The position numbers and the translations under genes are program-made. A stretch of DNA of 26,055 bases from Bdellovibrio sp. (GTDB taxonomy: Bacteria; Bdellovibrionota; Bdellovibrionia; Bdellovibrionales; Bdellovibrionaceae): contig JAKFCY010000004.1 in the NCBI GenBank assembly GCA_036676395.1, forward strand, positions 1 through 26,055, given 5' to 3'. The notes below the pieces were generated by a model. It was not told the DNA's origin and made no database searches. It saw only the letters and a program-made list of their open reading frames with translations. The number at the start of each line of letters is the position of its first letter. Within the stretch, counting starts at the first letter, position 1. Positions 4,568 to 21,430 of this stretch are shown one piece after another.

Positions 4568-4643
<76 letters not shown>

Positions 4644-4649
4644 ACATCT

Positions 4650-4680
4650 AAAAGGGTCTAGTTTTTACTAGGCCTTTTCT
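4650..4680. terminator. Hairpin terminator after tRNA-Phe (possibly bidirectional, overlaps the integrase stop)
   Basis: AAAAGGGTCTAG-loop-CTAGGCCTTTT; a variant copy lies at ~20367-20395. Confidence 0.6.
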
Positions 4681-5729
4681 ATTTGTGGAACGTGACCAAA
4701 ACGTGACAAATTAATCACATTGTCGCCGGTTTGGATATCTAATCGACTAGCAGCGTGTGCAAGATGTTCTGTTGCAAACTTTGCATATCGATCAACCATA
4801 GACCGCGTTTTCCAACCACCCAGTTCTTTCAGTTCATCACAACTTGTTCCAGCTTGACGATGCCAAGAAGCCCAGGTGTGACGTAAGTCATGGAATCTAA
4901 AATCCTCTAGTTCCGCTTTCTTAAGTGCAGTGATCCAAGCATGATTCGAGATGTTGTAACGAATCGGTTCACTGTTATAAGTAAAACAGAATTTCGGGTG
5001 CTTCCCAACTTGATCTGTAAGAACTGCAACTGCACTTTTATTTAATGGAACCCCTCTCGGTGTACCGTTCTTAGTTTGGTTTAGCCAAGCAGTATTTCTA
5101 TTTAAATCGACTCTATTCCATTCCAAGCCCAATATTTCCCGAGCGCGGCATCCTGTCGCTAAAGCAAACTTCACAACAGCCGCTAAATGGTCTGGACATA
5201 CGGCTAACAACTTGTCCGCCTCTTCTTTAGTCAACCATCGATCACGCTCAACTTCGCCCGTTAACATGCGAATTTTAGGGATATGATCTATCCACCGCCA
5301 TTCATCACGTGCCATACGCAATAAGCCGCGTAAGACGGCTAAATATCGATTAACGGTTGCTGGCATATTCCCTTTTTTAAGTTCTTTTTCGATGACCAAC
5401 CAAACAACGTCGCCATTAATTTGATTGAGCATTAAGTCACCTAAATAAGGATGTAAGTTCTCACATATCCGTTTCACATCACGATAACTTTTGAGCCTTG
5501 CTTTAATTTCGAGATACCTTACAACAGCTTCTTGCCATGAGCGATGGGGCTTAATTCCGAAATGAATTGATTTATATGCATCTAGCTTTATTTTAGCTAA
5601 ATAAGCTTCAGCTTCTTCTCGGGTTTCAGTCCCAGAACTTTGGCGTACTCTTTTGCCGTTCGAGAGTGTTGCACTGATCCACCAATAAGGGGAATCCTCT
5701 CTTTTGTAGATTCCGGTTTCACGAGCCAT
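4668..5729 (-). CDS. int: Phage-type tyrosine integrase
   Basis: N-terminal arm-binding-like region (GIYKREDSPYWW..RVRQSSGT); catalytic motifs TGCRARE, TKNG, HDLRH, LGGW, RYA. Confidence 0.95.
   Translation of the reverse strand: MARETGIYKREDSPYWWISATLSNGKRVRQSSGTETREEAEAYLAKIKLDAYKSIHFGIKPHRSWQEAVVRYLEIKARLKSYRDVKRICENLHPYLGDLMLNQINGDVVWLVIEKELKKGNMPATVNRYLAVLRGLLRMARDEWRWIDHIPKIRMLTGEVERDRWLTKEEADKLLAVCPDHLAAVVKFALATGCRAREILGLEWNRVDLNRNTAWLNQTKNGTPRGVPLNKSAVAVLTDQVGKHPKFCFTYNSEPIRYNISNHAWITALKKAELEDFRFHDLRHTWASWHRQAGTSCDELKELGGWKTRSMVDRYAKFATEHLAHAASRLDIQTGDNVINLSRFGHVPQIEKA
4691..4709. promoter_or_regulatory. Putative integrase arm-type binding sites (direct repeat of CGTGAC)
   Basis: CGTGACCAAAACGTGACAA ~90 bp from the anticodon-loop core. 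The same CGTGAC motif recurs in every att-like repeat in the window and at 20406-20424. Confidence 0.6.
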
Positions 5730-5941
5730 TTTGTTTCCTTTCCGGCTCGCCCTCTCTCGTGCTGTTTATATTCCTCTAACCAAAGATCCAAGTCAACTTT
5801 GTCATATACCAGACGGCGACCAAACTTCACCACTGGAATTTCAAGTTCAGTCAGGAGCGTGACACCTATGCCCAGGTAACACGCAGCCTCTTCTTTAGAA
5901 AGACAACGAACACACGGCAAGGGCAAGTCGTTCTCTTTCAT
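5597..5941 (-). CDS. Excisionase / recombination directionality factor-like HTH protein
   Basis: LSKEEAACYLGIG..KFGRRLVYDKVDLDLWL winged-helix signature; lies between rep and int and overlaps the int 5' end. Confidence 0.75.
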   Translation of the reverse strand: MKENDLPLPCVRCLSKEEAACYLGIGVTLLTELEIPVVKFGRRLVYDKVDLDLWLEEYKQHERGRAGKETKWLVKPESTKERIPLIGGSVQHSRTAKEYAKVLGLKPEKKLKLI

Positions 5942-7257: not shown

Positions 7258-7330
7258 TTTCGAACTCCGTTAGTTGATGGAGTCCGAATCTTCGGATTTT
7301 TAATTAATTAAAATTGGGCGCTAGGGAATT

Positions 7331-7359
7331 AAATACTACGGTGAGCATGCGTAGTATTT
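7331..7359. promoter_or_regulatory. Perfect 10-bp inverted repeat upstream of rep (operator or terminator)
   Basis: AAATACTACG-9nt-CGTAGTATTT. Confidence 0.45.
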
Positions 7360-7398
7360 TTGAGCGGCTTAAAATCTAGGAAAACGAATTATTAGAGA

Positions 7399-8136: not shown

Positions 8137-8162
8137 ATTCTCATTTTAATGAACCTAGAATA

Positions 8163-9551
8163 ATGGATAACTATATAAGAAAATTAAGTGTTAAGTCCCT
8201 CTTCAATGAAAAAACTAATTTGTCGTTAGATTTTGATGAGAAAGTTAACTGTCTGTTTGGCGTAAATGGTTCAGGTAAAACTACTGTAATTAATCTATTA
8301 GTAGCTTCTTTATTTTGTGATGCTTTCAAGTTATCAACTTTAGCTTTTACTAGCGTAATAGTTTCAATAGCACATACCGGCAAAAAGAAAGCTCGTCCTT
8401 TTTTTGAAGTTACCAAAATGGCAAATGGTGTTGCATATCGTTTTTTTCCAGAATTTGTAGATTCAGAAAAAGACGAAGCTGCAGAATTTATTTTTCCAGA
8501 TATATCTAGAAAAGAAGTTTCAAGGGCGGAAGAGATAAAGAAACAGAAAGTTTTAGAAAGAATAAAAGTTCACGTCTCAACAACATACGTACCTTTGAGT
8601 CGACTTCACGATAGCGAAATATATGATAGTGATTATTTACTCAGTCAAGCAATGCGCGTTAGGCACATACCACAAGAAGACATGGAGGATTTTTTAGATC
8701 CTAGCAGAAGAATGCTTCTTAAATTAGAAGCTAATTTTAAGCAAAAATATGCAGAAACCCAAAAGGAGATTAACAAAAATCTAGATGGGTTAAAAGATAC
8801 AATCTTAGAAAAAATGTTGATTAATCAGCAATTTGCTAATAAATACTCGAAGCAAAATATTAGTCTTAAATCAAAATTTACAAAACCTGTCTACGAACAA
8901 TTTCAAACGAAATTACAATCTGCTAATCTCAAAATTTCTGATACTGCATTGAGCCAACACTTCGAAATTATGGAAGTTAACATCAATAAGCTTAATACGC
9001 TAAGAGATGATTACAATCAGTTATTCAATACGACTTCAGAAGTTAAAAACAAAGATAAGCTGCTAAAAGAGATATCCGATAGCTATTCTATTGAGGCGTC
9101 AAAATACAGGGCTTTAAATCCTATTTATGAAAGATTTTTTGACGTATTAGAGGATGTTGAAAATATCCAAGCAAAAAAAGAAGAGCTTCTTAAACCATTT
9201 ACAGAAACAGCTAAGCTGATTAATGAATTCTTAATCAATAAATCATTCTTGTTTACTCCAACAGGAGGATTTGATATTCATTGTAATGGTAGGGAAATAA
9301 AACTTGCGGACTTGTCTTCAGGGGAAAAACACATGATAGCGTTACTTGGGAGGGTGGCTTTATCGCCAGAACAAGGTGCTGTATTTGTTGCGGATGAACC
9401 AGAGTTATCTCTACATTTAGAATGGCAAAGAAAGATAATTCCTGCAATTCAGTCTTTATCTCCGAGTATACAAATTATTGTTGCTACACATTCACCTGCA
9501 ATTATTCCTGACAGTGCGAAAATGATTGACTTGGAAAGCTCAGTAAAATGA
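8163..9551 (+). CDS. ABC/AAA_15-21-type ATPase, PARIS AriA-like
   Basis: Walker A GVNGSGKTT, long helical insert, signature LSSGEK, Walker B VFVADEPE, H-loop ATHSP. ATG 8163 (MDNYIRKL) is preferred over the TTG at 8130. Confidence 0.85.
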   Translation: MDNYIRKLSVKSLFNEKTNLSLDFDEKVNCLFGVNGSGKTTVINLLVASLFCDAFKLSTLAFTSVIVSIAHTGKKKARPFFEVTKMANGVAYRFFPEFVDSEKDEAAEFIFPDISRKEVSRAEEIKKQKVLERIKVHVSTTYVPLSRLHDSEIYDSDYLLSQAMRVRHIPQEDMEDFLDPSRRMLLKLEANFKQKYAETQKEINKNLDGLKDTILEKMLINQQFANKYSKQNISLKSKFTKPVYEQFQTKLQSANLKISDTALSQHFEIMEVNINKLNTLRDDYNQLFNTTSEVKNKDKLLKEISDSYSIEASKYRALNPIYERFFDVLEDVENIQAKKEELLKPFTETAKLINEFLINKSFLFTPTGGFDIHCNGREIKLADLSSGEKHMIALLGRVALSPEQGAVFVADEPELSLHLEWQRKIIPAIQSLSPSIQIIVATHSPAIIPDSAKMIDLESSVK

Positions 9552-10399
9552 AAAGGTCTGACGAGCTGAAATTTAGTCCAGAAGAAAATATCAGAAGAAT
9601 AATAATGGACAAAAAAACTAAATACATCGTTGTAGAAGGTGAAGAGGATGTTCCTAAATATGAGCAAACCATAAGAGCACTCATCTCTCAAGACTTCGAC
9701 TTTGAACCTATTTTTGTTGGTGGTCGAAAAAATATTGAAGCACTTTTAAAAAGTAATCCTAATCGTAATTTCATGGCGATTGCAGACTCTGACTTCAATA
9801 AGGAAGCCTTAACTTCTGACAATAGAGTAGTGGTTTTATCAAGATACTCAATAGAAAACTTTATGTTTTGCAATACTGTATTGAGTGCACTTATTGCGAA
9901 TGTTGTTAATGATACTGAAGCAAATGTACGAGCTTGGTTTAATTTATCTGATTGGATAAATCATTTGCACAGAAGGTTATTTTTCTTATTAAAGTCACTG
10001 CATTTTTATCAAAAAAATATTTACAACAAAAAGAAATGGTCAAAAGTTGATTTGAATATGATCAATTCTTGGGAAATTTGTGAAATTAAAATTTCGGATT
10101 TTCTAAACCACCTTTATGACAATTCAGTCCCAACTGAAGAAATTGAAAAAAGCGACCAATTTAACAATATTACAGAACGCGAATTCGTTAAATACTTTCC
10201 AGGTAAATTACTAATCACTAGTCTATATAGATTCATCTATATGAAATTGATTGATAAGTATGGAACGGCAAAAAAATTAACTACTAGAGTCGGTAACCAA
10301 GACTCTCTTATTTTTTCATGTTCTCCATTTCTGCATAGGCAGCATGATTTGAGAACGGAACTCAAAGGAATAGCAGATTTTTTTGCAGTGACAACGTGA
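9548..10399 (+). CDS. DUF4435 / TOPRIM-like nuclease, PARIS AriB-like
   Basis: IVVEGEED, GGRKN, ADSDF, YSIENF motifs; ATGA overlap with the ATPase stop. Confidence 0.75.
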   Translation: MKRSDELKFSPEENIRRIIMDKKTKYIVVEGEEDVPKYEQTIRALISQDFDFEPIFVGGRKNIEALLKSNPNRNFMAIADSDFNKEALTSDNRVVVLSRYSIENFMFCNTVLSALIANVVNDTEANVRAWFNLSDWINHLHRRLFFLLKSLHFYQKNIYNKKKWSKVDLNMINSWEICEIKISDFLNHLYDNSVPTEEIEKSDQFNNITEREFVKYFPGKLLITSLYRFIYMKLIDKYGTAKKLTTRVGNQDSLIFSCSPFLHRQHDLRTELKGIADFFAVTT

Positions 10400-10481
10400 C
10401 AGTTTTGGCATGCTTTAACGAGTATAAACGAGTTAGGGCGAGTCTATAACGCTATATAAATGATGATTTTTACAATTTGAA
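10392..10481. repeat. att-arm repeat copy 1
   Basis: CAACGTGACAGTTTTGGCATG...CGAG x3...CTATAACGCTATATAAATGATGATTTTTACAATTTGAA; joins a truncated attC. Confidence 0.9.
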
Positions 10482-10524
10482 TTAAGGAGCGCCTTTAGGC
10501 GTCCCGCTTGAATGACGGTTAGGC
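10476..10524 (-). other. Truncated integron attC site
   Basis: Minus strand GCCTAAC-CGTCA-TTCAAGC-GGGACGCCTAAAGGCGCT-CCTTAA-TTCAAA gives R'', L'', central stem and L'. The expected R' GTTRRRY is replaced by the att repeat. Confidence 0.75.
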
Positions 10525-10934
10525 GTTTCTCTTTCTGATTTTGAAAGATACTGAACTGTAGTTTTTATTTCATCCCCCGTGTATTGCAGTAGTGAACTTT
10601 CAGCCTCAAATTTAATAGACTCATCACCCACCATAATTATTTCGTACATTGCTCGCAAATTCTGTAGGTGTGTAAGCTTTATTTCAAGAATGCAGCCTAG
10701 ATAAGCATTCATGGTAAAACCTTCTCGGTTTATTGAAATACACAAAGAGCTAACATTTTTAAAACTTAGTCTAGCTGGTGCAATAACAAAGTTGCACGGT
10801 GTTTCGTCAAACAGCCACTCTTTAATATGGTCTATATCCAGTTCAAAGTCAGATGAGAAGTTTTCGTCCGTGAACGCCATAGCGTGAATATAGTTATCGT
10901 GGAATGACTCTATTTCAACGATATGAGAATTCAT
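10482..10934 (-). CDS. Hypothetical protein in an integron gene cassette
   Basis: 150-aa ORF; GTTAGGC 7 nt before the ATG; the C-terminal tail PNRHSSGTPKGAP is read-through into the attC. Confidence 0.75.
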   Translation of the reverse strand: MNSHIVEIESFHDNYIHAMAFTDENFSSDFELDIDHIKEWLFDETPCNFVIAPARLSFKNVSSLCISINREGFTMNAYLGCILEIKLTHLQNLRAMYEIIMVGDESIKFEAESSLLQYTGDEIKTTVQYLSKSERETPNRHSSGTPKGAP

Positions 10935-11052
10935 TATTAATGCCTAACAGTTAATATAGAGACCCATGGGTCCGCATATTAATAATTGAATGATCGTTGA
11001 TGCACCTTTGGCAGTTGAAATTAATCGCCATGCTTACGGGTGAGGTCCACAA

Positions 11053-11715
11053 TTACTTAAAGTTTCGAATTACTTTATAAGTAATACTAGTGTTATCAGC
11101 GCTAATAACTTCCAACATAGCGCCTTTGTAAGCAATAGTTTTTGAGGTGCTGAAATCGTATTCGACATCATTATTAAATGCAGGTCGCGCTGAATTATTA
11201 CTAAACTCTCTGTAACTAATTTTTAACTTATCGCCTACTCTTCCACTATATAAAAGTGTTTGTTGAAAGCTTGTACCTCTCTCAGAAATTTTAGTTGTTC
11301 TTTTGAAATTGCCTTGATAACAAACTGGGTTCCCGAATGTTGTAATCACACACAGTTCATTGGTAGCTGACTTGCTAACGCTCAAGGCATCAAATGGATC
11401 TGAAAGAGGATTTTTTGTAACGCCCTGTGCACTATAGAAATCATTTCTTTCATCAAAACCGATTTGCGGATATTTAAGGGGCGGAATTGTGTAGTTAAAT
11501 CCACCCATCTTTTCATATACTTCTAATACCTTTTCTTCAACTACGACGCCTTTTTCTAGCAATGGATCACCTATTGATGCAACCTCAACTTTGCCAATTT
11601 CTGGCCTGTCTATGAGCGTTGCTTTAGTATCTGAGCCATTATATTTGACGGCTACACATCCTGACATTGACAGTATTAGTAGGATTGCAGATATTGTAAT
11701 TTGTGGTTTATGCAT
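11053..11715 (-). CDS. Putative lipoprotein, unknown function
   Basis: Signal peptide with lipobox-like MSGC; 220-aa open frame. Confidence 0.75.
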   Translation of the reverse strand: MHKPQITISAILLILSMSGCVAVKYNGSDTKATLIDRPEIGKVEVASIGDPLLEKGVVVEEKVLEVYEKMGGFNYTIPPLKYPQIGFDERNDFYSAQGVTKNPLSDPFDALSVSKSATNELCVITTFGNPVCYQGNFKRTTKISERGTSFQQTLLYSGRVGDKLKISYREFSNNSARPAFNNDVEYDFSTSKTIAYKGAMLEVISADNTSITYKVIRNFK

Positions 11716-11764
11716 AATTCATTCGATTTTGTTGCTATCAAGAATTAAAACTAAGTGTAGGCTT

Positions 11765-11986
11765 TTAGTGGCAATGGTATGGAACTGATTTATTGTGACA
11801 CCCATAACTATCTAAACCGCCTCCATGTGAGGGTGCTCCACTCGTTCCAGTCTCATCATGAGTATGTCCACTGTAGAAAGCCACAGCTTTCCTAGGATTG
11901 AAGCCATCAGCATTTACTGCACCAATACCTACTGTAGCTACTGCAATGATGGCTAATACAGCTTTTTTTGCGTGTTTCATAAGCAC
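11765..11986 (-). CDS. Small secreted His/Cys-rich protein (YHYH-type)
   Basis: Signal peptide ending AVNA; HTH..SHGGGLDSYGCH..YHCH motif. Minus-strand GGAG lies just upstream, so the start may be GTG 11986 or ATG 11980. Confidence 0.7.
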   Translation of the reverse strand: MLMKHAKKAVLAIIAVATVGIGAVNADGFNPRKAVAFYSGHTHDETGTSGAPSHGGGLDSYGCHNKSVPYHCH

Positions 11987-12095
11987 TCCAAACAGTAATG
12001 TAATTTACAAGCACTTGATTAGTAATTTGACTATACTCTTAACGACGTAGGAATGTAATTACATATGCGCTGTTTTGAGCCGAAAGCACTCTTAA

Positions 12096-12234
12096 CAACG
12101 TGACAATTTTGGCACGCTTAAACGAGTATAAACGAGCGAGGGCGAGCCTATAACGCTATATTAATGATGATTTTTACAGTTGAAAATCCGATAAATTGAA
12201 TTATGTATCAATAAGTTAGACTGCTCACGTGACA
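12096..12234. repeat. att-arm repeat copy 2 with non-tRNA right arm (IHF consensus + CGTGACA)
   Basis: 86/95 identical to copy 4 through TTGAAAATCCG; then ATAAATT-8-TATCAATAAGTTA (12206-12218)-9-CGTGACA. Confidence 0.92.
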
Positions 12235-12277
12235 TGTCTATAATTCGACATAGTAGACTTTGCAGTAATTTATTGTT

Positions 12278-12829
12278 TTATTGAATATCACTTATTTTTA
12301 TTTGCAATAGGTTTTCACATTCTGTAATTACATTTACTTCTGGTGCTGCGGCAACCTCATCAATGTTATATTGCAATATTGGGAGATTCAATTTTTTTAG
12401 TATTTGCAAATTAGCATTATCGGGATTAGTAGAATCTTCAAACCGTATAGCCAAATAATTGGTTCCAACTAAAATTTCGATTGGCTCCACATTTGTCCAC
12501 GCTCTTCCTCCTGAACCATATAAAGTTCTCTTCTCAAAAACCTCAACTTTCCCACGCGAAATAGTGCCTTGGTACAAAGTTGATCCACTCAATTTGCCCC
12601 CTAAATAACTGTTGTAAACTAAGCACACGTCCTTGCTTTTTTCAGTGAGAAAGATTCTGGTATCAGCAAAAAAGGTAGGAGAGTCATTAACTTTTATTGA
12701 ACCCCCATCTTGAACTTGCCATAAACTAGTTTTAATTATGGGCGACTGATTGGTTTTCACTGGTAACTGATTACAAGCTGCCAATGATAAAAATACAGCC
12801 CACATTGAAAGTCGAAGAAAATTATTCAT
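12278..12829 (-). CDS. Putative lipoprotein, unknown function
   Basis: Signal peptide with LAAC lipobox. Confidence 0.75.
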   Translation of the reverse strand: MNNFLRLSMWAVFLSLAACNQLPVKTNQSPIIKTSLWQVQDGGSIKVNDSPTFFADTRIFLTEKSKDVCLVYNSYLGGKLSGSTLYQGTISRGKVEVFEKRTLYGSGGRAWTNVEPIEILVGTNYLAIRFEDSTNPDNANLQILKKLNLPILQYNIDEVAAAPEVNVITECENLLQIKISDIQ

Positions 12830-12846
12830 TTTTTTTATTGATTAAC

Positions 12847-14490
12847 TTAAGTTGTTAAATTAATCTGCACCTCTAGCATCCGTATGACTTCTTGGTTTGA
12901 AAAGTTTTTCGCAAAATCGAGAGCTGATTGTCCGTTATATTTAATTTCATTAATTTTTATAGTGGAACTCAATATAACTAACATACCTTCAGTTGACTGA
13001 TTAAAAATGGGTATGAATGCTATTGGAAAATTTTCCCTACCTACCCTTTCTGTAAGGCTAGCTCCTAAATTGATTAATCGCTTAGCTGAAATGAAATCAT
13101 TATTCATAAGCGCTATTGATAATGCTGTGTGGTTTTCTGGACTTTTGGAATCAATATTATTTTTAATTTTTACAAGGGATTTAAGAGCGCCTAAGGTATT
13201 TTTATTCTTTGACAGTTCTAGATACAGCTGTGGTCCTTCAGGAAAGAACGTTCTAGCTAAACCTATATATGCGTTTTTTCTCTCCGCATCTGATTTGTTC
13301 CAAGCTAAATAATATGCAATGCCTAAAGTGTTTCTTGAAAAGTCAGTTTTACATCCTTTATCAATAGCGGTTTGTGCAAGTTCAATCGCATTATCTATAT
13401 TAAATTGATGATTAATTTCAAATTTTGCATGCTCACTATAAAAACATGGGTATATCTGATACTCATTTTCACGTTGAGCGAGTAATTTATTAGCGCTCAC
13501 GAGATCATTTTCAGATATGTATATTTTGGTTAAATTTTTGTAAGCCTCTAATCTAGCTCTGTCATATGAATTTGTAGTTCGCTCACTGGCTATAGCTTTC
13601 TGATACATTTCCGCTGCTTTATCTAAGTTTTTCTTTCGCATCCATAAATCACCCCAATTAGTCCACAACCATAAGTTATCCGTACCAATCTTTTGAGCCT
13701 CCATAAACTCATCTTCAGCAGCTTTTAATTTGTCCTGATTAGTGTAAACATAGCCTAGTAATATGTGTGAATTAACATGATTTTTATTAATAGCTAATCC
13801 AGTATTAAGATGTTGTTCAGCTTGGCTCAAGCCTTCCATACTCCAATTATTTCTCATTACAATTCGTGCAAACTCCGGATACGCGTCTACATATAGCGGA
13901 TTCTTGATAACAATTTTTTCTAAATAACTTTTTGCTAAACCTAGATTACTAGCATTCTCACTGTCAATATATTGAACTGCCAATTTATAAAGCTCATCCG
14001 GCGATTTCTTTTTTAATTCTTTTGCTTGATGGTAAGAAAATAGATCAGGCCATTCAATAGTGAAGTTTTCAACTAATGACGCTTCTATATTTGGGTAACC
14101 AAGGTTTGCAATTACTTTTGTTGAGATTGCTGGGCTCATTGGAGTTATAGGTCTGCGAACTTCCAGCTTTACAGTATTAAGACCAATTTTAGCTTCTTGT
14201 GAAGACAGACCAGAACTCATCCCTTGAGATTTGTCGTCATTTGTTAACACTGCAATCAAGGTATTTTTTGGTAACCCATTAAAATAATATGTAACTTCAA
14301 CATCATAATTTTCACTACCTTGGTTTATTTTCATGGATTTAATGCTATTTTTCCCTGATAATTTTTGGGGTGTTTGTGGTTTATTAAGCTCAGTAAAAAA
14401 TTCCTTTTTTACCAAAAAAATAGCTATTACCGTTAATACTATTGCTAAAACAAGGGTTAATTTTTTATTATTTTTAATATTAATATTCAT
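12847..14490 (-). CDS. Membrane-anchored TPR-repeat protein with C-terminal ankyrin-like repeats
   Basis: N-terminal TM helix; TPR-like helices (LGYVYTNQDKLKAAEDEF, WGDLWMRKKNLDKAAEMYQKAI); NHTALSIA..LINLGA and GQSALDFA ankyrin-like motifs. Confidence 0.8.
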   Translation of the reverse strand: MNINIKNNKKLTLVLAIVLTVIAIFLVKKEFFTELNKPQTPQKLSGKNSIKSMKINQGSENYDVEVTYYFNGLPKNTLIAVLTNDDKSQGMSSGLSSQEAKIGLNTVKLEVRRPITPMSPAISTKVIANLGYPNIEASLVENFTIEWPDLFSYHQAKELKKKSPDELYKLAVQYIDSENASNLGLAKSYLEKIVIKNPLYVDAYPEFARIVMRNNWSMEGLSQAEQHLNTGLAINKNHVNSHILLGYVYTNQDKLKAAEDEFMEAQKIGTDNLWLWTNWGDLWMRKKNLDKAAEMYQKAIASERTTNSYDRARLEAYKNLTKIYISENDLVSANKLLAQRENEYQIYPCFYSEHAKFEINHQFNIDNAIELAQTAIDKGCKTDFSRNTLGIAYYLAWNKSDAERKNAYIGLARTFFPEGPQLYLELSKNKNTLGALKSLVKIKNNIDSKSPENHTALSIALMNNDFISAKRLINLGASLTERVGRENFPIAFIPIFNQSTEGMLVILSSTIKINEIKYNGQSALDFAKNFSNQEVIRMLEVQINLTT

Positions 14491-14534
14491 ATTTATTTGG
14501 TTTTTTTATAGTTAGGATACTTAGTTCCGTCCAC

Positions 14535-14580
14535 ATAGTAATTAATAGCAAGTACGGACGCAACCAAATAGAAATGCTAG
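14535..14580 (-). promoter_or_regulatory. Sigma70-like promoter block A
   Basis: Minus strand TTGCGT-17nt-TACTAT, 45 bp upstream of the 547-aa gene; 39/46 identical to 20113-20158. Confidence 0.6.
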
Positions 14581-14626
14581 GTAGTTATTTGAAAGCAAAC
14601 TTCAGTAAGGGTAGAAGCAATCTTAG

Positions 14627-14766
14627 CAACGTGACAATTTTGTCATGCTCTAACGGGTATAAACGAGTGAGGACGAGTCTATAACGCTATATAAATGATG
14701 ATTTTTTACAGTTGAAAACCCGATAAATTAGTTTAGTTATCAATAAGTTAAGATATTAGCGTGACA
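14627..14766. repeat. att-arm repeat copy 3 with non-tRNA right arm
   Basis: Same left arm, core TTGAAAACCCG, then ATAAATT-8-TATCAATAAGTTA (14738-14750)-9-CGTGACA. Confidence 0.92.
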
Positions 14767-14795
14767 AAGTCTGCTTTCGGCCCAAAGCAGTCGTT
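14766..14795. repeat. Short GC hairpin repeat (GCTTTGGGCCGAAAGC family, reverse orientation)
   Basis: CTGCTTT-CGGCCC-AAAGCAG stem-loop; relatives at 16838-16868 and 20199-20229. Confidence 0.75.
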
Positions 14796-14853
14796 CGAGC
14801 TATCATTAGCTCACCAATTCTGTCAAATTTGAGAATTAGATTATTCGTTTCCT

Positions 14854-16734
14854 TCAATCACCAACTGAAAATGTATCGCCCTCATATTCACCTTGAAACT
14901 TACTGATAGGCCTACCTGCCCACAAAAATGCATCATTATTTAGAGTTGTGTATTCAGGTGTATTTTTTTCAAAAGCCCAATTAGCGTAGTTGCCTCTCCT
15001 TACTATGACTTTAGTGTTACCTGCACCAGTAATTTTTGAGCCTTCATAACTAGTCACTATCACCGCAATTAATTTTGCACTCGGCTCTATAGCTAAATTC
15101 CAGCTAAGAGACTCATATGAGCTCAACATTAAAACTATTGGATTACGTGTTTTCTTCACAGTTACATTCACGATACGGTTCGTACCATCATGCTTACCTT
15201 GATAGACACCAATGGCTTGAACTTGAGCGTTGCTTGGAATATTTCCTATCAATCCAGCTCTTTTTTCTGCTATTTGCGTTTCAAATCCAGCCAGACTGCC
15301 TTGTTTATCATTCTTGTAATCAGCTTTTTTTTCCAACTCAGTCAATTCTTTTTTTACTCTATCCGTAACAAGCACAGATTCTAATGATAGTGGTTTTCCT
15401 ATTTTAACCTCATCACCAATCCACATTCCTTTGTGGACGCGTCGCATAAAGCCTTTGCGACCATCGAGAGGAGATACAATACCCCAGAACTCATCCGCTT
15501 CAATGGGTGATAATGTTAAATTATTTAAATTAAATACCCACGGATTTGGAAGGTTATTAGTTGAGTAGCCTATGCCGTCATGGGATGTGACCAAAAGCGC
15601 TTCTTCACTTAGTTTCGCGTAGTTATTTTTATTTAAAAAGCCACCTGTATCAAATTGTTTTTCTTTACCTGAATTTAGGTTAAATAGTGTAAAAAAATCA
15701 TTTTTAGGTTCTAAGAAAGACCTAAAAAAAATAGATTTGCCATTTTCCATTAAAATAGGATTGTCATAGGTAATTCTACTATTTACTAACTTATAATCCT
15801 TAACGATTTTACCTACTACTCCAGTCGATATGCGGATATTCTCAACTAGAGAAAAATCTTCATGTGATCGCGACCCTATTAAAAAGCGTGAGGGTGACTC
15901 ACTAATTTGCAAAGCCCAAGTCTGGCCATTATATGGAATGGAATAAGGTGCAATCTCTCCCGTTTTGAAATCTAACAACCATAATTTACTTTCTCCATTA
16001 ATTGTTCTATTTACTAAAGCTGCTTGCATTTCTGGAAACCAAGCGTAAAAATCACCAAATTTTCTGGCTCCCCACAACACTTGTCCTGTTTCATTATCGA
16101 CAAAGCTAAGTAAGCCTCCATTTCTTATCACAATCATTCTTCCATTAGGAGAAAGTACAGCGGTGTGGTCAGATGCATTTGGCATTACAGGTAGATGGGC
16201 TATTTGCTTACCACTAGGAATTTCATAGGAAACATATTCTCCACGTGTATATCTGAGTACCGCCACTCCAGACTTAGAAGCAGCTATTCCAGTAAAAACC
16301 TGCATACCTTCGGAGTTTGGTATGAAAGATGGTGAACCAAGTTTAACCATAGGCCTCAATGGTGGTTGCATAGAGCGAAAACTTACGAGGGATATTCCAA
16401 TAAGTTGAAGTAATTGCTCATCCTGCTCTTCAAGGCAGTTGTTGCGCAGAACAGTTAATGCCGCGATCTTTTTTGGATCAATTTCTTCCTTTGATACAAA
16501 TTTCACGCAAGTTAATACTCTAATTTCTAGTTTTGACTCATAACGATTTTTGAATAATTTTAAATAGTTATCTTCTGCTGGAATAATAGCGTCAACCCTT
16601 TCTAGGGCACTCGCAACCTCAGCACTGGGTGGAAAAGTCTTATTAAACTCTTCAATTGAGGATTGTTGGGCTTTTAAAGAATGAGCATAAATTAGCCCGG
16701 TAGCAAACAAAAAGCACAATATTGTTCTAGACAT
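14854..16734 (-). CDS. Secreted protein with probable beta-propeller and a C-terminal domain of unknown function
   Basis: Signal peptide (..SLKA-QQ); repeats such as LSPNGRMI and LLDFKTGEI; 626-aa open frame. Confidence 0.75.
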   Translation of the reverse strand: MSRTILCFLFATGLIYAHSLKAQQSSIEEFNKTFPPSAEVASALERVDAIIPAEDNYLKLFKNRYESKLEIRVLTCVKFVSKEEIDPKKIAALTVLRNNCLEEQDEQLLQLIGISLVSFRSMQPPLRPMVKLGSPSFIPNSEGMQVFTGIAASKSGVAVLRYTRGEYVSYEIPSGKQIAHLPVMPNASDHTAVLSPNGRMIVIRNGGLLSFVDNETGQVLWGARKFGDFYAWFPEMQAALVNRTINGESKLWLLDFKTGEIAPYSIPYNGQTWALQISESPSRFLIGSRSHEDFSLVENIRISTGVVGKIVKDYKLVNSRITYDNPILMENGKSIFFRSFLEPKNDFFTLFNLNSGKEKQFDTGGFLNKNNYAKLSEEALLVTSHDGIGYSTNNLPNPWVFNLNNLTLSPIEADEFWGIVSPLDGRKGFMRRVHKGMWIGDEVKIGKPLSLESVLVTDRVKKELTELEKKADYKNDKQGSLAGFETQIAEKRAGLIGNIPSNAQVQAIGVYQGKHDGTNRIVNVTVKKTRNPIVLMLSSYESLSWNLAIEPSAKLIAVIVTSYEGSKITGAGNTKVIVRRGNYANWAFEKNTPEYTTLNNDAFLWAGRPISKFQGEYEGDTFSVGD

Positions 16735-16837
16735 ATTTTTTATTCTTAAAATGTTCTTATATGATTGTTATGGACAATCATACTTAATACAAATAATAGA
16801 AACCACTACTGAAAATACTAGGATTTTAAATGAGGTG

Positions 16838-16868
16838 AATGTCAGCTTTGGGCCGAAAGCGGAGACAT
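16838..16868. repeat. Short GC hairpin repeat between two cargo genes
   Basis: AATGTCAGCTTTGGGCCGAAAGCGGAGACAT. Confidence 0.75.
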
Positions 16869-16930
16869 CAACTTCGAATGATACATATGGGACAAACTTC
16901 AATTTGCACAGTCTGAGCATTAGGCAATAT

Positions 16931-19900
16931 CTAATAAGCTTCTATCAACCCTGTTGAATCTTGATAATAACTTAGCACCTCATCATATTTACTTGGCATT
17001 TCACCATGCTCATATTCCCAATAAACGAAAGCTGCATTCGCTAAATCTTCACCTTTCGCATATTTTCGCCAGTTATTTGGATTGTTGGGGTCTGTTTTAT
17101 AAGCTCTAAATGCCGCCATATTAGTATCTAACAATGATTGAGCCTCATTAACACGCCCAGCTTTTTTCAACCAATAAGCACAGCTTCCAGCGGGGGAGCC
17201 ATAAGCCCACGACAAATCTTCAGAGACCTTTTTTCCTAGATTAAAGTAATCTTTATCTAAACTAACCTGTTTTTTATCTGCCAAATACCCTAAGTGACAC
17301 ATCGCCCTAGCTTTAAATTGCGCTTGCGGAATTATTTCAACGTGTTTTGCTAATTCAGTCAAATAGATGGGCAATTGCTTATCGCCCTGATCAACATACA
17401 TATCTAGAATTTCTAAAAAGCCGCCTATTGCTCTTCTTTGTTCTTTTGCGCCATGCTGGGTACCAAAATATTGATTGAAGGCGTTAAGTTCTTTAAGCAA
17501 TATAGGTTTCATTTCCCTTTGTTTTTTTGAATCTTTTTCAGCAATAGTCACTAAAGCATTAATTCTCAAATCTGAAGGGTTTAAATTATTAAGAATGTTA
17601 GTTGCTGCTTTCAGGTTGCCTCGATCAGCCTCATTGATAGCCATCTCAATTTCAATCGCATCTGCACGACGATTGTTTTGTATGCTTTCTGCCGGCGCAC
17701 TGTAATCAAAGTCAATTTGCAGTTTCTGAACATCCTCCACACTCGCCCCACAGTAGGCCATTCCCTGCGCAATGTAAGGTAGTAATGTGTAATGCGGATG
17801 CCTGATTACAAATGAATTATTTACATTCATTTTATTAAGCTGCAAAGATTTTACTGCATTGTTGAAACTATTTAATGCACCTTCACAATCACCATATTTT
17901 GCACGTAACCGTCCCACTTTGGTATAAACGCTTGGAGAAAATTTATACCAGCTACCTGCTTGCACAAAGCGTTCATACTCATCCGCAGCTTGCTTTGCTT
18001 CTTTAATCTGTCCACTAGCAAACAAACTATTTATTTTTTGAGAATAATAGTTCTGATTAATCCAGCTTTTATTGGTGCCCTCTTTAGCCTCAGATTCTTT
18101 TCGTTGCTTCTCAATAAAATCAATTGGCAGAGTTGGCAAACTCCCTTTGTAATGCAATTCGTAACTAAGCCACATTTGCGGATAGCCTGCAAAGCCCTCG
18201 CGCCCATAAGGATTGTTATAATTGCCGCCTACTATACGTTTAAGATCAAAAGGATATCTACATTCATCGATTGCCAATTTCAGAGTTTCTGATATTTGCA
18301 ACCGATTATTTTTTTGCATTGATATGGCACTAGATAGGAAATCTCTACCTGTTTGCAAATCACCATTTCTACACATATGTAAAGCCGAGTTAGCATAAGC
18401 ATACGCACTAAAATAAGTGCCATGTATGATAGGTTGGTCTCGGTATTCAATTAAATCCAACTGTCTTTTAGCAAAAGCTGTGTTTCCCATACGCGAATAA
18501 GCAATCGCCATTTCTGCCCTAATATTATTGATTCTCATAAGATCACTATCTGAGCCATGAAGCTTTTTGCTAGGAGTGTACAGCTCTAGTATTTTTAGTA
18601 ATTGAATAGCTTTGGCAGTTTGCTTGGTATCTGCATAAACTTCAGAGGCGCTTGCTAAAGCTAGTAAATAGGTTTCACGATCAGCTCCATCATTGTAATC
18701 ATTTATCTCAATTACAGTGCTCAAATCCGTATTCAGTGGCTCAACATAAACGGGCTTACGTAAAGCTTTTACTAGTGCTGCATTGTTTAGAGCAATTTCA
18801 GCTTGTTTAATTTCCTCTCGCGCTTCCGCCCTAACTTTGAGGAATACATCACTTTGTTTATTTACTTTCTTTTCGAAATCCAAGCCATAGGGATCTATTC
18901 CACGTTCTCGCATGTTTTGTAGAGTATGATTTAACTCCCCTTTTTTGCCGAGAGCCGTAAATAATCTACGTACTTTATAAAAAGTATGGACTCCGCCATT
19001 GGCGGTTTGTTTGAACGCAAAGTCACTCAAGCAGTCAACATTGGGCTTAAAAATACATGCTTCATATTGGGTTCTTAGGTCATTTGCTAACTCTATCTCT
19101 GTGATTGGCTTAGGAGCGGGCAGCGCGAATCGCGGATCTTCATTGGAATAGGACATCGCTTCGTCCAGCCAAGGGCATTTAAGCACTTGCTCAGTATGAT
19201 TGTCCAATGGTCGCAAATGTCGCATTCCAAGCTTATAGCGCTGATATGTTTCAGCAAAAGGAATAACATCTAACTCTCTTAAAGATTCAGGACGATGAGC
19301 ATTCCGGCCTAAAGTTGAAAGTCTTTCAGTAAAAACAAGTGATTTATCGACACTTAAGTAAATGTATCCGGATAAGAAAAAAGAGGACATTGGGTACATC
19401 TTGTTTGTTGGAATCTCGTAATCACTTTGCGTCCAATCAATCACGCCATATAGCTTTCCATCTTCATTAAAATATTTGGTATAGCCAACAGGCACACCAG
19501 AGCAGAAATACTCCTGACTTTGCAATTTGCCAGATGGCCAAAACACTTTGATTGCTTGATTTTTCTCTAATTCATAACTAATGGAGGGCGTTGATGGTTT
19601 ATAAAACCAAATTTTTGAATGTTCCTGATTGTTTGCTAAATAGGTAGTAGTAACACTAATTGCGTCAACTTCATGAACTGCCTTATATTTCAATGTTTTG
19701 TCTTCATGAAGGACTGTATGAATTTTTTTACTTTGCGAATATTGATTGAGCTGTTTGGCAAGCTCTAATTGTCTAAAAGCTTGAAGTAAATCTAATGGCA
19801 TTCTTTCATACTTTACACCTTCACTTTTACTCAACTGCGCAAAAGGGTGGTAGCTTTTTTCAGAACTGTAAGACTCATACACTCCAGTTTGCAAAGCTTC

Positions 19901-19972
19901 CTCATAAGTAGTATCAGCAAGGCTATCAAAAGATAGTAACGCTAAGAATAAGTAAACTGTGCATCGCATCAT
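16931..19972 (-). CDS. Large secreted protein with MORN-variant-like repeats and an alpha-helical (TPR-like) region
   Basis: Signal peptide (..DSLA-D); FWPSGKLQSQEYF..G..KYFNEDGKL repeats; long helical remainder; 1013 aa. Confidence 0.75.
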   Translation of the reverse strand: MMRCTVYLFLALLSFDSLADTTYEEALQTGVYESYSSEKSYHPFAQLSKSEGVKYERMPLDLLQAFRQLELAKQLNQYSQSKKIHTVLHEDKTLKYKAVHEVDAISVTTTYLANNQEHSKIWFYKPSTPSISYELEKNQAIKVFWPSGKLQSQEYFCSGVPVGYTKYFNEDGKLYGVIDWTQSDYEIPTNKMYPMSSFFLSGYIYLSVDKSLVFTERLSTLGRNAHRPESLRELDVIPFAETYQRYKLGMRHLRPLDNHTEQVLKCPWLDEAMSYSNEDPRFALPAPKPITEIELANDLRTQYEACIFKPNVDCLSDFAFKQTANGGVHTFYKVRRLFTALGKKGELNHTLQNMRERGIDPYGLDFEKKVNKQSDVFLKVRAEAREEIKQAEIALNNAALVKALRKPVYVEPLNTDLSTVIEINDYNDGADRETYLLALASASEVYADTKQTAKAIQLLKILELYTPSKKLHGSDSDLMRINNIRAEMAIAYSRMGNTAFAKRQLDLIEYRDQPIIHGTYFSAYAYANSALHMCRNGDLQTGRDFLSSAISMQKNNRLQISETLKLAIDECRYPFDLKRIVGGNYNNPYGREGFAGYPQMWLSYELHYKGSLPTLPIDFIEKQRKESEAKEGTNKSWINQNYYSQKINSLFASGQIKEAKQAADEYERFVQAGSWYKFSPSVYTKVGRLRAKYGDCEGALNSFNNAVKSLQLNKMNVNNSFVIRHPHYTLLPYIAQGMAYCGASVEDVQKLQIDFDYSAPAESIQNNRRADAIEIEMAINEADRGNLKAATNILNNLNPSDLRINALVTIAEKDSKKQREMKPILLKELNAFNQYFGTQHGAKEQRRAIGGFLEILDMYVDQGDKQLPIYLTELAKHVEIIPQAQFKARAMCHLGYLADKKQVSLDKDYFNLGKKVSEDLSWAYGSPAGSCAYWLKKAGRVNEAQSLLDTNMAAFRAYKTDPNNPNNWRKYAKGEDLANAAFVYWEYEHGEMPSKYDEVLSYYQDSTGLIEAY

Positions 19973-20112
19973 TTGCTAGCCTTTTGAGTGCAATTGAGGT
20001 GACTTATTGCATAGGTGGAATTACTTTTTGCATATTGGTATAACATTAAGTGAGCTAGCCTGGACATGTTTTTTTATTATTAACTTTTGAAGTTAGTTAT
20101 TGCTCTGCCCTT

Positions 20113-20158
20113 ATAGTAATTAATCGCACATACAGACACAACCCAATAGAAATGCCAG
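20113..20158 (-). promoter_or_regulatory. Sigma70-like promoter block B
   Basis: Minus strand TTGTGT-17nt-TACTAT upstream of the 1013-aa gene; homologous to 14535-14580. Confidence 0.6.
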
Positions 20159-20198
20159 TATATTTTTATGTACAGTGAAGAGAGTTTCTATTAATTTG

Positions 20199-20229
20199 AA
20201 TGACCGCTTTGGGCCGAATTCCGACATTG
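20199..20229. repeat. Short GC hairpin repeat abutting the attR arm
   Basis: AATGACCGCTTTGGGCCGAATTCCGACATTG directly before CAACGTGACA. Confidence 0.65.
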
Positions 20230-20358
<129 letters not shown>

Positions 20359-20450
20359 GTATTTAGAAAGGTCTAGCTTTTGCTAGGCCTTTTTTATTTG
20401 GTGAACGTGACCAAAACGTGACAAATTAATCACGTTATCGCCAGGTTGGA
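20359..20450 (-). pseudogene. Remnant of a related element's left end (terminator, arm sites, last integrase codons)
   Basis: Closely similar to 4644-4735 (..CGTGACCAAAACGTGACAAATTAATCAC..TCGCC..TTGGA), after which similarity stops. Confidence 0.8.
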
Positions 20451-21213: not shown

Positions 21214-21315
21214 CCGTGACAACTTGTCACGGCTTTACGAGCATAAAAGAGTAAAGCGAGTCTATAACGTTATATAAATATGGTTTTAAAGTTAGATATC
21301 CGCGTGTCGTCAGTT
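21214..21315. repeat. att-arm repeat copy 5 (degenerate attR with partial tRNA fragment)
   Basis: CCGTGACAACTTGTCACGG...GCGAGTCTATAACGTTATATAAAT...ATCCGCGTGTCGTCAGTT. Confidence 0.85.
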
Positions 21316-21430
21316 TGGATATCTAATCGACTAGCAGCACGTGCAAGATGTTTTGTTGCACTTTGCTATCTATCACGCATAAATCTGCGTTTTCCAACCA
21401 CCTAGTTCTTTTCATTCAGCATAATTCGTT
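21313..21430 (-). pseudogene. Decayed integrase 3' fragment
   Basis: GTTTGGATATCTAATCGACTAGCAGC..GTGCAAGATGTT..GCGTTTTCCAACCACC matches ~4729-4848 with indels. Confidence 0.85.

Follow-up and report, generated by a model that had tools for sequence, protein, structure and literature searches.

A conserved non-tRNA arm at integrase-less cassettes in tRNA-Phe islands of the Methylophilaceae

Described systems and how the locus compares

Many aquatic and soil bacteria have additive flexible islands beside their tRNA genes, and the arrival of the integrase-less pieces in them is mostly unexplained. One such island, fGI-2 of a 'Ca.' organism, belongs to the same bacterial family as the cassettes described here and displays similar general features, with variable cassettes stacked by a tRNA gene, recurring repeats, and many genes of unknown function. 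Its repeat is the tRNA 3' end. At the locus here, the recurring unit is instead a P arm with a core of 11 nt from the anticodon loop, and a non-tRNA arm comes after it; the junctions that carry this arm repeat only 11 tRNA nucleotides, and the tRNA 3' half recurs at position 20325 only. The passages of the fGI-2 description considered here mention no arm-type or IHF-type sites. The present locus lies in a stretch of 26,055 nucleotides (hereafter the window), and we refer to the non-tRNA arm, defined as the 44-47-nt stretch directly after the core, as the X arm. The contig (assembly GCA_036676395.1) is probably a mis-binned Methylophilaceae contig; the bulk of the source genome appears to be a different organism.

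CIMEs are defined as ICEs or IMEs that have decayed but still possess their ordinary attL and attR sites (PMC5704250), and their tandem accretion has been treated by Pavlovic 2004 and Bellanger 2011, as cited in PMC5704250. They resemble the cassettes reported here in being integrase-less, att-bounded segments in tandem with an integrase element 3' of a tRNA gene, and insertion at attR has been proposed for them (PMC5704250). The eight complete cassettes that we recovered are likewise att-bounded and have no detected integration or transfer genes. Unlike CIMEs as portrayed in the relevant parts of PMC5704250, they have at their left end a dedicated and conserved arm module with no tRNA part, common to cassettes of unrelated cargo, and they hold no int, transfer-gene or tRNA 3' remnants of a decayed ICE or IME with ordinary attL and attR. 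The locus is a variant of the CIME/accretion and additive tRNA-island systems, distinguished by a concrete site design: an arm of 44-47 nt, with two boxes at fixed spacing, placed before unrelated cargo.

Small, recombinase-less, att-flanked elements whose recombinase is encoded elsewhere include the H47 genomic island of E. coli, which has no recombinase of its own, carries att-type flanks and is said to follow a 'parasitic strategy' (PMC3191183), the CR2-sul2 unit, which is moved in trans by the GIsul2 integrase (PMC9376610), and the SCC-like cassettes that occur alongside SCCmec (PMC11470126). Our cassettes are likewise small, recombinase-less and flanked by att-type repeats, and would depend on a recombinase encoded elsewhere, but the recombinases and targets are other ones, and the accounts of those elements, in the parts that concern us, describe no tRNA-omitting arm that restricts docking to attR. 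IMEX elements use the host XerCD at dif; the site described here lies in the anticodon loop of a tRNA gene and adjoins a dedicated integrase.

In the attP site of phage lambda, the P' arm runs from the core through the IHF site H' to the arm-type sites P'1-3. The X arm has the same order of core, IHF-consensus site and arm-type site, with an A/T-rich stretch 5' of the IHF box, and its arm-type motif is, as in lambda, unlike the core sequence and present on the other arm too, so that arm-type sites distinct from the core lie on both sides of it. Unlike the lambda P' arm, the X arm carries just one arm-type site, which lies 42 nt away from the overlap, is an alternative to the island's own longer P' arm (the tRNA 3' half with arm sites at +86 and +97), and belongs to elements without an integrase.

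Integrons combine an integrase platform with an array of short integrase-less cassettes that recombine attC x attI, the attC site being folded as a single strand. The likeness is in the platform and in the cassettes, each with its own site and unrelated cargo. The cassettes here are unlike those of integrons in being larger (1-5.6 kb), mostly with more than one gene and with room for their own promoters, and in having what appear to be double-strand sites with arms rather than a folded attC: no imperfect palindrome of that type was found, and when the two window copies were folded as DNA, each on either strand, the z-scores were -0.86 to +0.65. A structured RNA or attC-like fold was rejected as an identity for the arm, as there is no folding signal and Rfam has no family for it.

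The tRNA-Phe island in the window

The tRNA-Phe(GAA) gene (4568..4643, + strand; ARAGORN, Rfam and the sequence) contains the attL core, an 11-nt identity block, TTGAAAATCCG, that covers the anticodon loop and 4 nt of the stem (4599-4609). It is followed by the canonical P' arm (4644..4718, +), which includes the tRNA terminator hairpin and, beyond it, a direct pair of arm-type sites, CGTGACC (4691-4697) and CGTGACA (4702-4708), located 86 and 97 nt past the anticodon loop; the second is the copy that the initial annotation reported beside the integrase, at 4702. The arm adjoins the gene for a tyrosine integrase of 353 aa (4668..5729, -; Pfam PF00589, 5e-33; phrog_1, 8e-69), which is intact as far as Pfam shows, the catalytic domain being covered over positions 1-170 of 172. 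Upstream of int and overlapping it is a 114-aa ORF (5597..5941, -) that matches phrog_7338 and Pfam HTH_17, the latter weakly and under the curated cut-off (E 1.4e-4); a CGTGACA at 5858 falls inside it, and the island of genome G183 holds a 112-aa counterpart. The ORF may encode an excisionase or regulator.

Further to the right, the repeat extends leftwards by about 117 nt, and this extension, the P arm (repeat family D1), is present in four copies in the window. Copy 1 (10370..10476, +; D1, 74%) has lost its core and right arm, with unrelated sequence in their place, and probably marks where the int-PARIS primary island ends on the right. Copy 2 with its core (12074..12190, +, the core TTGAAAATCCG being at 12180-12190; D1 repeat and sequence) carries at 12099 the arm-type site CGTGACA, which has an inverted but imperfect partner, and (A/G)CGAG recurs in it at 12122, 12132 and 12142. 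Next is cassette B (12191..14722, 2.5 kb), which lacks an integrase, encodes a 183-aa protein (12278-12829, -) and a 547-aa TPR/ankyrin-like protein (12847-14490, -), and ends in a P arm of its own (14605-14711) with the core next to it (14712-14722). Cassette C (14723..20324, 5.6 kb) contains 626-aa and 1013-aa ORFs (both -) of no clear family, and is closed by attR, consisting of P-arm copy 4 (20208-20313) and a core (20314-20324). The tRNA-Phe 3' half, which is the B' side of attR, and a remnant canonical P' arm (20325..20450, +; CGTGACC..CGTGACA at 20417) follow, and are the relic of an older tandem island; core, 3' half and P' arm together (20314-20450) form repeat D2, 90% identical to 4599-4735. 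A degenerate further P arm and core, fused to an integrase C-terminus remnant, is found at 21215..21430 (+; repeats D3, D4, D8 and D10).

The core, TTGAAAA(T/C)CCG, continues into the tRNA 3' half at 4599-4609 and 20314-20324, but at 12180-12190 and 14712-14722 the sequence parts from the tRNA directly after it, as had been noted at the outset. In cassette B the X arm (12191..12234, +) comprises 15 A/T-rich nt, an IHF-like box, TATCAATAAGTTA, at 12206-12218, a 9-nt spacer, and CGTGACA at 12228-12234; in cassette C (14723..14766, +) the IHF-like box is at 14738-14750 and CGTGACA at 14760-14766, with a hairpin next to it at approximately 14770-14793. The arm pattern given in the initial annotation, CCGATAAATT-N8-TATCAATAAGTTA-N9-CGTGACA, is found without any mismatch at 12188-12234 and 14720-14766; these are its only two matches in the window, none further appearing at 3 or fewer mismatches, and 100 dinucleotide shuffles yield none. 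Its statement that the boxes are identical and the spacers divergent is borne out, with agreement between the two copies at 30 of 30 box positions and 5 of 17 spacer positions. The fit of TATCAATAAGTTA to the IHF consensus WATCAANNNNTTR is likewise correct, but the consensus alone is weak evidence, since the window matches it seven times where 3.16 matches are expected, and three of 100 shuffles also have seven. For the CGTGACA motif the window count is 12 where 1.46 would be expected, a number reached by none of 100 shuffles, and 11 of the 12 copies sit in P, P' or X arms.

Homologous arms and the cassettes that carry them

Thirteen X arms are available from ten sources, mostly Methylophilaceae MAGs and metagenome contigs. 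All thirteen keep TCAA-N4-TTA, the N9 spacer and CGTGACA, with no indels, 14 invariant positions and both spacer lengths fixed, and pairwise identity is 100% in CGTGACA, 79% in box 2, 36-40% in the spacers, and 32% in the 13 nt downstream. The fit to WATCAANNNNTTR is exact in nine arms and one base off in the other four, and the 15 nt 5' of the IHF-like box are A/T-rich. The idea that boxes and not spacers are conserved thus survives a wider collection as far as the invariant parts of box 2 and CGTGACA are concerned, but box 1 (CCGATAAATT) diverges and is not a conserved motif: beyond close relatives only its CCG and A/T-richness persist. The core motif TTGAAAA is intact in 10 of the 13, and the TTGAAAATCCG block is common to the tRNA, attR and X junctions.

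How the arms were located bears on how they are read. Five of the thirteen came from patterns that already demanded boxes 2 and 3, and therefore inform only box 1, the spacers and the context. The arms of L009, L067 and L062 were located without using the X boxes, and in comparison with the two window arms they match at 20-24 of 27 box positions and 4-8 of 17 spacer positions, with Fisher p values of 1.7e-5 to 0.006 in five of the six comparisons and 0.11 in one. A census of Methylophilaceae at 2 or fewer mismatches gave seven sites in 6 of 361 genomes, and the reversed pattern, used as a control, gave 0 matches in the same number. X-type junctions were called by the expression TCAA-N4-TT(A/G)-N9-CGTGAC, under which a badly decayed arm would count as 'other', a class that holds 4 of the 39 readable Methylophilaceae junctions. 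The first P-arm pattern, CGAGYCTATAACGCTATAT, was over-strict and found one locus only. A BLAST-type search with the 167-nt site gave no match in 181 other genomes of the family to which the source genome is assigned, a result from which host range is not inferable, as such searches overlooked P arms of 74-80% identity that pattern scans found. There were 0 matches to either pattern in a viral contig collection, and searches of an open-access library gave no paper that describes the X arm or Methylophilaceae tRNA-Phe cassette arrays.

The P arm and core directly precede 10 of the 13 X arms, CGTGACA is also present in the P arms of relatives, and the 5' half of tRNA-Phe precedes none of the 13. 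Eight cassettes, of 0.96-5.6 kb, are complete and bounded by P-core junctions; six of these were scanned with Pfam and have no integrase family, and tblastn with the window integrase found no match in the remaining two. The window, G488 and contig Ga0209231_1001267 each hold an array with two X junctions, 1-6 kb apart and closed by the tRNA 3' half; in the array of Ga0209231_1001267, X-type and tRNA-3'-type junctions alternate. Cargo is unrelated between cassettes wherever it was compared or annotated: in addition to the window proteins described above, the L009 cassette encodes a PAS-GGDEF-EAL protein, that of G183 a frameshifted PAS-GGDEF-EAL on the other strand, and that of G488 five proteins with no integrase family. 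The G183 cassette was considered as a version of window cassette B and rejected, with BLASTP between their proteins giving E of at least 1.

Possible use of the arm

We think it rather likely that the X arm is the compact P'-type arm of non-autonomous cassettes, which are served in trans by the Int of the island and enter at attR-type sites. The combination of conserved boxes, unrelated cargo and no detected integrase argues for a selected arm of this type and against independent decay products. The cassettes would live inside Methylophilaceae tRNA-Phe islands, each holding the two halves of an attP-like site. The left half is the X arm, with about 15 A/T-rich nt, an IHF-type bend site, (W)ATCAA-N4-TTA, then 9 nt and one CGTGACA, and the right half the P arm of about 117 nt, with a CGTGACA / TGTCACG pair and ending in TTGAAAATCCG. 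In a circular form the halves would join as P-core-X, and the island tyrosine integrase would exchange strands in the anticodon-loop overlap in trans, probably helped by the small HTH protein encoded upstream of int and by an IHF/HU-type protein; HU/IHF-family genes are present in all three Methylophilaceae genomes checked. Viable targets would be a resident attR (P-core-tRNA 3' half) or another P-core-X junction, and such insertions would generate tandem arrays like that of the window, whereas insertion into an intact tRNA-Phe gene would break it, because the X arm lacks the tRNA 3' half. The proposal predicts that Int and IHF bind the arm, that strands are exchanged in the loop, and that the cassettes are mobile today and depend on attR. 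It counts against the proposal that, to our knowledge, recombination of attP-like with attP-like sites is not a standard reaction of lambda-type integrases.

Some of the X-arm copies are probably relics, given that the arms of G258 and G449 have no recognisable P arm, that of G267 has two core changes and chromosomal-looking genes beside it, and G488b has a change inside the overlap. We consider it unlikely that all P-core-X junctions are to be explained in this way, as fossils of one old tandem-accretion or deletion event (a CIME-like decay) whose now immobile cassettes spread with the islands by descent and by homologous recombination between P arms, the boxes being alike through shared descent. 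The damaged copies fit such a history, as do the truncated int neighbouring the L009 arm and the rightmost P arm, which is orthologous in L009 and the window (95.5% alignment) with differing adjacent cargo, an observation that also fits cargo swapping by homologous recombination. In the same direction, there is no recombination signal in four sequencing runs, in that no circle or cassette-loss joint at 12190, 14722 or 20324 is present among their contigs, which are all assembled and unable to show circles. Neutral decay is nonetheless disfavoured because the 14 box positions and the spacer lengths are spared in 13 arms, with spacers and flanks random-like at 32-40%; in addition, none of the eight complete cassettes has an int or tRNA 3' remnant at its left end, and the cargo behind the same arm is unrelated in those cases that were compared or annotated.

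The runs also contain related sequence. Runs X2 and X3, from another study, have contigs near-identical to 12282-14564, and leave 7270-10139 and 14732-19897 uncovered, which is not evidence of absence. In X1, one contig has a joint between 4644 and 12829, one side of which consists of only 30 letters of tRNA 3' end. An X4 contig departs from the window at 12196 and continues as an L009-type arm, and shows only that an L009-like strain is present.

That the arm is functional but unconnected to recombination is very unlikely in our view; it would then be a protein-binding control element 3' of the cassette genes, for instance an insulator, terminator or promoter that acts on neighbouring genes and depends on Int/Xis or IHF. 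In the window the arms do lie a short way 3' of the last cassette gene (stop codons at 12278 and 14854), and three (w3, L009 and G449) are followed by a hairpin, but cassette genes are on the plus strand in L009, L062 and G488, so that cargo orientation varies with respect to the arm. A promoter-like match at 12217-12244 overlaps the first window copy; the second copy has none, the region has five promoter-like sites against 12.9 in shuffles, and with that single match in the first copy only, a promoter was rejected. The link of 10 of 13 arms to a P arm and core, the CGTGACA motif shared with P and P' arms, and the lack of an Rfam family and of a folding signal are further points against a control element. 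Least probable of all is that X is the host flank (B') of a secondary non-tRNA site, with P-core-X an ordinary attR and chromosome to the right: downstream of the G267 arm come genes of ordinary appearance, among them Lnt- and DUF6279-type ones, and no second P arm for 9.6 kb, and the G258 arm is 134 nt past a tRNA-Met gene, but homology ends right after CGTGACA with different downstream DNA in 13 of 13 arms, a host flank would not be expected to hold the arm-type motif of the integrase with constant spacing to an IHF-like box, and the two-junction arrays are closed by the tRNA 3' half.

If the X arm is indeed a compact P'-type arm, it accounts for the mobilisation of cassettes in trans and for their stacking behind a resident island rather than entry into the tRNA gene, and it provides a sequence signature with which such cassettes can be located in further genomes. 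More tentatively, and as a possibility on which we would not yet rely, Methylophilaceae tRNA-Phe islands may be two-tier platforms, in which a resident island with a lambda-type integrase supplies Int and a safe attR dock to a separate population of dependent, integrase-less cassettes, whose short P' arm has an IHF box and one arm site but no tRNA half. Such cassettes would insert only behind a resident island, tRNA insertion being lethal, and by analogy the platform would be a double-strand, arm-dependent counterpart of the integron, in which the design of the cassette att site enforces dependence on a helper.

Architecture of the tRNA-Phe island

The tRNA-Phe(GAA) gene lies at 4568–4643 with the gene for a 353-aa tyrosine integrase (Int; 4668–5729) beside it on the opposite strand, and four copies of a repeat of about 117 nt, the P arm (family D1), are present at 10370–10486, 12074–12190, 14605–14721 and 20208–20324. 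Copies 2–4 terminate in the 11-nt block TTGAAAA(T/C)CCG, the core, which corresponds to the anticodon loop of tRNA-Phe plus four stem bases and is found within the tRNA gene itself at 4599–4609. From 20314 the block continues into sequence that repeats the tRNA 3' half and the integrase-proximal arm (D2, 90% over 137 nt); it is thus an ordinary attR with the remains of an older island behind it. The blocks ending at 12190 and 14722 lead into a non-tRNA right arm, the X arm. In the canonical integrase-proximal (P') arm the tRNA 3' half is accompanied by a terminator hairpin, and two arm-type sites lie 86 and 97 nt past the loop. Two older layers at the same site, the tRNA 3' half with what remains of a canonical P' arm (20314–20450) and a degenerate P arm and core fused to an integrase C-terminus remnant (21215–21430), are also present in a Methylotenera MAG.

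The X arms match CCGATAAATT-N8-TATCAATAAGTTA-N9-CGTGACA (boxes 1–3) with no mismatches at 12188–12234 and 14720–14766; no third match to the full pattern was found in the window with up to three mismatches allowed, and none in 100 shuffles. The initial annotation had described identical boxes with divergent spacers, and the pattern is exact, with boxes identical at 30/30 positions and spacers at 5/17. Its assignment of box 2 to the IHF consensus WATCAANNNNTTR also stands, though this consensus by itself is weak (seven window matches versus 3.16 expected). CGTGACA, which it had equated with the arm motif beside the integrase, occurs 12 times in the window versus 1.46 expected, a count attained in 0 of 100 shuffles. 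Eleven of these are in att-type arms, namely the P arms (10395, 12099, 14630, 20233/20244 and 21215/21225), the integrase-proximal arm (4702) and its relic (20417), and the two X arms (12228 and 14760); the twelfth (5858) is in a small ORF directly upstream of int.

This 114-aa ORF (5597–5941, leftwards), within which the 5858 motif falls, matches HTH_17 weakly, at an E-value (1.4e-4) that does not reach the curated cut-off; also encoded upstream of int is a 437-aa protein without a known family (5944–7257, leftwards). Both have counterparts beside int in the island of the Methylophilaceae MAG G183, a 112-aa ORF in the equivalent position and a 429-aa protein 62% identical to the 437-aa protein (tblastn). 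The primary island in the window includes a PARIS-like defence pair (8130–10399), an AAA_21/AAA_15 ATPase (AriA models, 1.5e-31) and a DUF4435 protein (AriB, 7e-16), and the equivalent spot in G183 codes for a 530-aa reverse-transcriptase-domain protein (L067 6728–8320), so the int-proximal module may be a defence hot spot.

Several smaller repeats accompany the arms. Within the P arm there are three (A/G)CGAG repeats with starts 10 nt apart (12122, 12132 and 12142), similarly placed in other P arms and replaced by GGCGAG repeats in those of relatives; they could form a second protein-binding array, for example for an excisionase. Copies of a small hairpin rich in G and C (GCTTTGGGCCGAAAGC or its complement) lie immediately outside P arms and X arms, and one separates the two genes of cassette C (window 12069–12090, 14770–14793, 16836–16872 and 20197–20233; L009 ~1245–1270; L082 ~7453–7475). 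A 55-nt repeat (80% identical) is found at 14526–14580 and 20104–20158, ~25–50 nt before the third and fourth P arms. It occurs elsewhere too, since assembled contigs from several runs join or depart from the window at 14535 and 14567. In P-arm copy 1, a 40-nt stretch (10476–10515) stands in for the core and right arm; it coincides with a 'goes back 40' joint in assembled-contig runs with many loose ends on both sides, and hence seems to be a short repeat occurring in many contexts.

Homologues and conservation of the X arm

A scan independent of the right arm, using the final 9 nt of the P arm together with the core (TTTTTACAGTTGAAAAYCCG), returned 29 loci from species-representative genomes and 28 from a metagenome collection. 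Removal of chance matches without a P arm left 37 junctions of the island family, truncated ones and one duplicate included, most of which continue into the tRNA-Phe 3' half and five into an X arm. Two of these five are the window copies, and the others come from L009 (a Methylotenera MAG contig), G183 (L025/L067) and a metagenome contig (L062). Three more arms were present in the flanks of loci retrieved for other matches (L034, which is G488a, and two in contig Ga0209231_1001267), and the pattern core + TCAA-N4-TTA + N9 + CGTGAC added one, from a MAG labelled Moraxellaceae (L068). Within the family to which the L009 genome belongs, a census with up to two mismatches gave seven sites in 6 of 361 genomes, and zero with a reversed-pattern control. 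The collection totals 13 distinct arms from 10 sources, the X class being defined by TCAA-N4-TT(A/G)-N9-CGTGAC. BLAST with the P arm over the collected loci, with manual reading of 16 'other' rows, gave 39 readable family junctions, 25 with the tRNA 3' half (two degenerate), 10 X and four other; two of the loci were retrieved through the X pattern, so that the X share is not an unbiased frequency.

Three arms collected independently of the boxes match each window copy at 20–24 of 27 box positions and 4–8 of 17 spacer positions; of the six comparisons, five give a Fisher p between 1.7e-5 and 0.006 and the sixth 0.11. Averaged over all pairs of the 13 arms, identity is 100% in CGTGACA, 79% in box 2 and 66% in box 1; the two spacers reach 40% and 36%, and the 13 nt downstream 32%. 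Five arms found with box-requiring patterns are informative only for box 1, spacers and context. TCAA, TTA, CGTGACA and both spacer lengths are invariant. Within box 2 the invariant bases occupy positions that the IHF consensus specifies, and variation falls on its four N positions; the consensus is matched exactly in nine arms and with one base off in four. Homologues bear out the conservation of box 2 and CGTGACA amid random-like spacers but not that of the box 1 sequence, in which CCG persists (one base altered in 4/13); a 15-nt stretch is kept A/T-rich (13–14 of 15 in the arms displayed in the alignment), and the 9 nt separating box 2 from CGTGACA are of mixed composition.

The window is an entire 26-kb contig of a 3.4-Mb assembly, and is probably mis-binned and of Methylophilaceae origin: the assembly has a second tRNA-Phe on a 0.6-Mb contig, none of 181 genomes in the family of the source assembly matches the site, 5.9 kb of the right flank is 95.5% identical to L009, and all but one of the related sites are labelled Methylophilaceae or beta-/Pseudomonadota. 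The result from the 181 genomes is then uninformative; the X-arm finding is unaffected.

Context and cargo of the cassettes

The P arm and core precede 10 of the 13 arms. L068 has a shorter, different left arm with CGTGAC ~50 nt upstream, the arms of genomes G258 and G449 have no recognisable P arm, and none of the 13 is directly preceded by a tRNA-Phe 5' half. The window, genome G488 and contig Ga0209231_1001267 each have an array with two X junctions. In G488 the cassettes measure 2.2 and 4.2 kb and attR closes the array; in the contig, junctions of X type alternate with those of tRNA-3' type. Eight cassettes are complete, with an X arm at the left and P arm plus core at the right, and range from 0.96 to 5.6 kb.

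Cassette B (12191–14722) codes for a TPR/ankyrin-like 547-aa protein and a 183-aa protein, and cassette C (14723–20324) for 626-aa and 1013-aa proteins of no clear family. The L009 cassette codes for a PAS-GGDEF-EAL protein, and in that of G183 a PAS-GGDEF-EAL gene on the other strand is frameshifted; the cassette B and G183 proteins are unrelated by BLASTP. The five proteins of the G488 cassettes include no integrase family, none was found in the six complete cassettes scanned with Pfam, and tblastn of the window Int against the other two complete cassettes, which are short, gave no match.

Two loci have irregular arrangements. In G258 (L080, ~9649–12283, reversed), an X arm lies 134 nt past a tRNA-Met; next come a photolyase gene and a core with the tRNA-Phe 3' half, with neither P arm nor tRNA-Phe 5' half on either side. 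In G183 (L083, ~3751–3818, reversed), just the tRNA-Phe anticodon stem-loop and 3' half lie beside int, and no tRNA is predicted by ARAGORN over 19.9 kb. Immediately to the left is a second integrase, a distant one of 394 aa, so the island seems to be separated from the real tRNA by another element.

Readings of the X arm

Some copies are damaged: that of genome G267 has two core changes, and downstream of it lie Lnt- and DUF6279-type genes but no further P arm within 9.6 kb; G488b has one change within TTGAAAA, and the int adjoining the L009 cassette is truncated. Such copies would fit relics spread by descent and homologous recombination, as would the lack of a recombination signal in assembled-contig runs, but we consider this unlikely because it leaves unexplained how 14 positions and two spacer lengths survive amid randomised DNA. 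A single promoter-like match, confined to one copy, favours a transcription control element, which is very improbable as gene orientation varies and the arm is tied to P arm and core. Least probable is the host flank of a secondary att site, hinted at by G267 and G258, given that the downstream DNA differs in every copy and the arm contains an integrase motif. A structured RNA or attC-like fold was rejected.

The 13-arm comparison supports selection on a compact P'-type arm, as the initial annotation had proposed for an attP-like site; its function we infer. In tandem elements at one att site, each junction would consist of the P arm of the left element, the core, and the P' arm of the right element. 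The X arm would then be the P' arm of the cassette to its right, whose own P arm would be at its right end. In place of the canonical P' content, the X arm has A/T-rich DNA, a box of IHF type and a single arm-type site, 42 nt past the loop. The phage lambda P' arm is arranged as core, IHF site and arm-type site, and the X arm has the same order, with an IHF-like site.

Integrase-less, att-bounded segments in tandem with an integrase-bearing element, inserted at attR, are described as CIMEs and accretion in PMC5704250. There a CIME is by definition an ICE or IME that has decayed and keeps ordinary att sites, and the present cassettes are not of this kind. Borrowing of a recombinase by small islands has been described, as for H47 (PMC3191183), and tycheposons are described as stacking in tandem at tRNA sites (bioRxiv 10.1101/2020.12.28.424599). 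Additive tRNA-linked flexible islands have the tRNA 3' end as their recurring repeat; in the window the recurring unit is a P arm and 11-nt core followed by a non-tRNA arm. Among the open-access papers searched, we found no account of the X arm or of tRNA-Phe cassette arrays in Methylophilaceae.

On the sequence evidence, the X arm is probably the P' arm of integrase-less cassettes that use the resident Int in trans and dock at attR or P-core-X junctions. With this role, binding of an IHF-type protein to box 2 is rather likely, and HU/IHF-family genes (counted together) are present in all three Methylophilaceae genomes checked; present-day mobility of both window cassettes is suggested more tentatively. 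Int would be supplied by the resident island, with the 114-aa ORF upstream of int as a candidate directionality factor. Identity between X junctions and the tRNA stops after TCCG, so any exchange must fall within the 11-nt block, and we infer that it would occur most simply in the 7-nt loop between the stem halves. A P-core-X circle entering an intact tRNA gene would fuse the 5' half to X and destroy the gene; entry into attR or another P-core-X junction would be harmless, and would yield the observed arrays.
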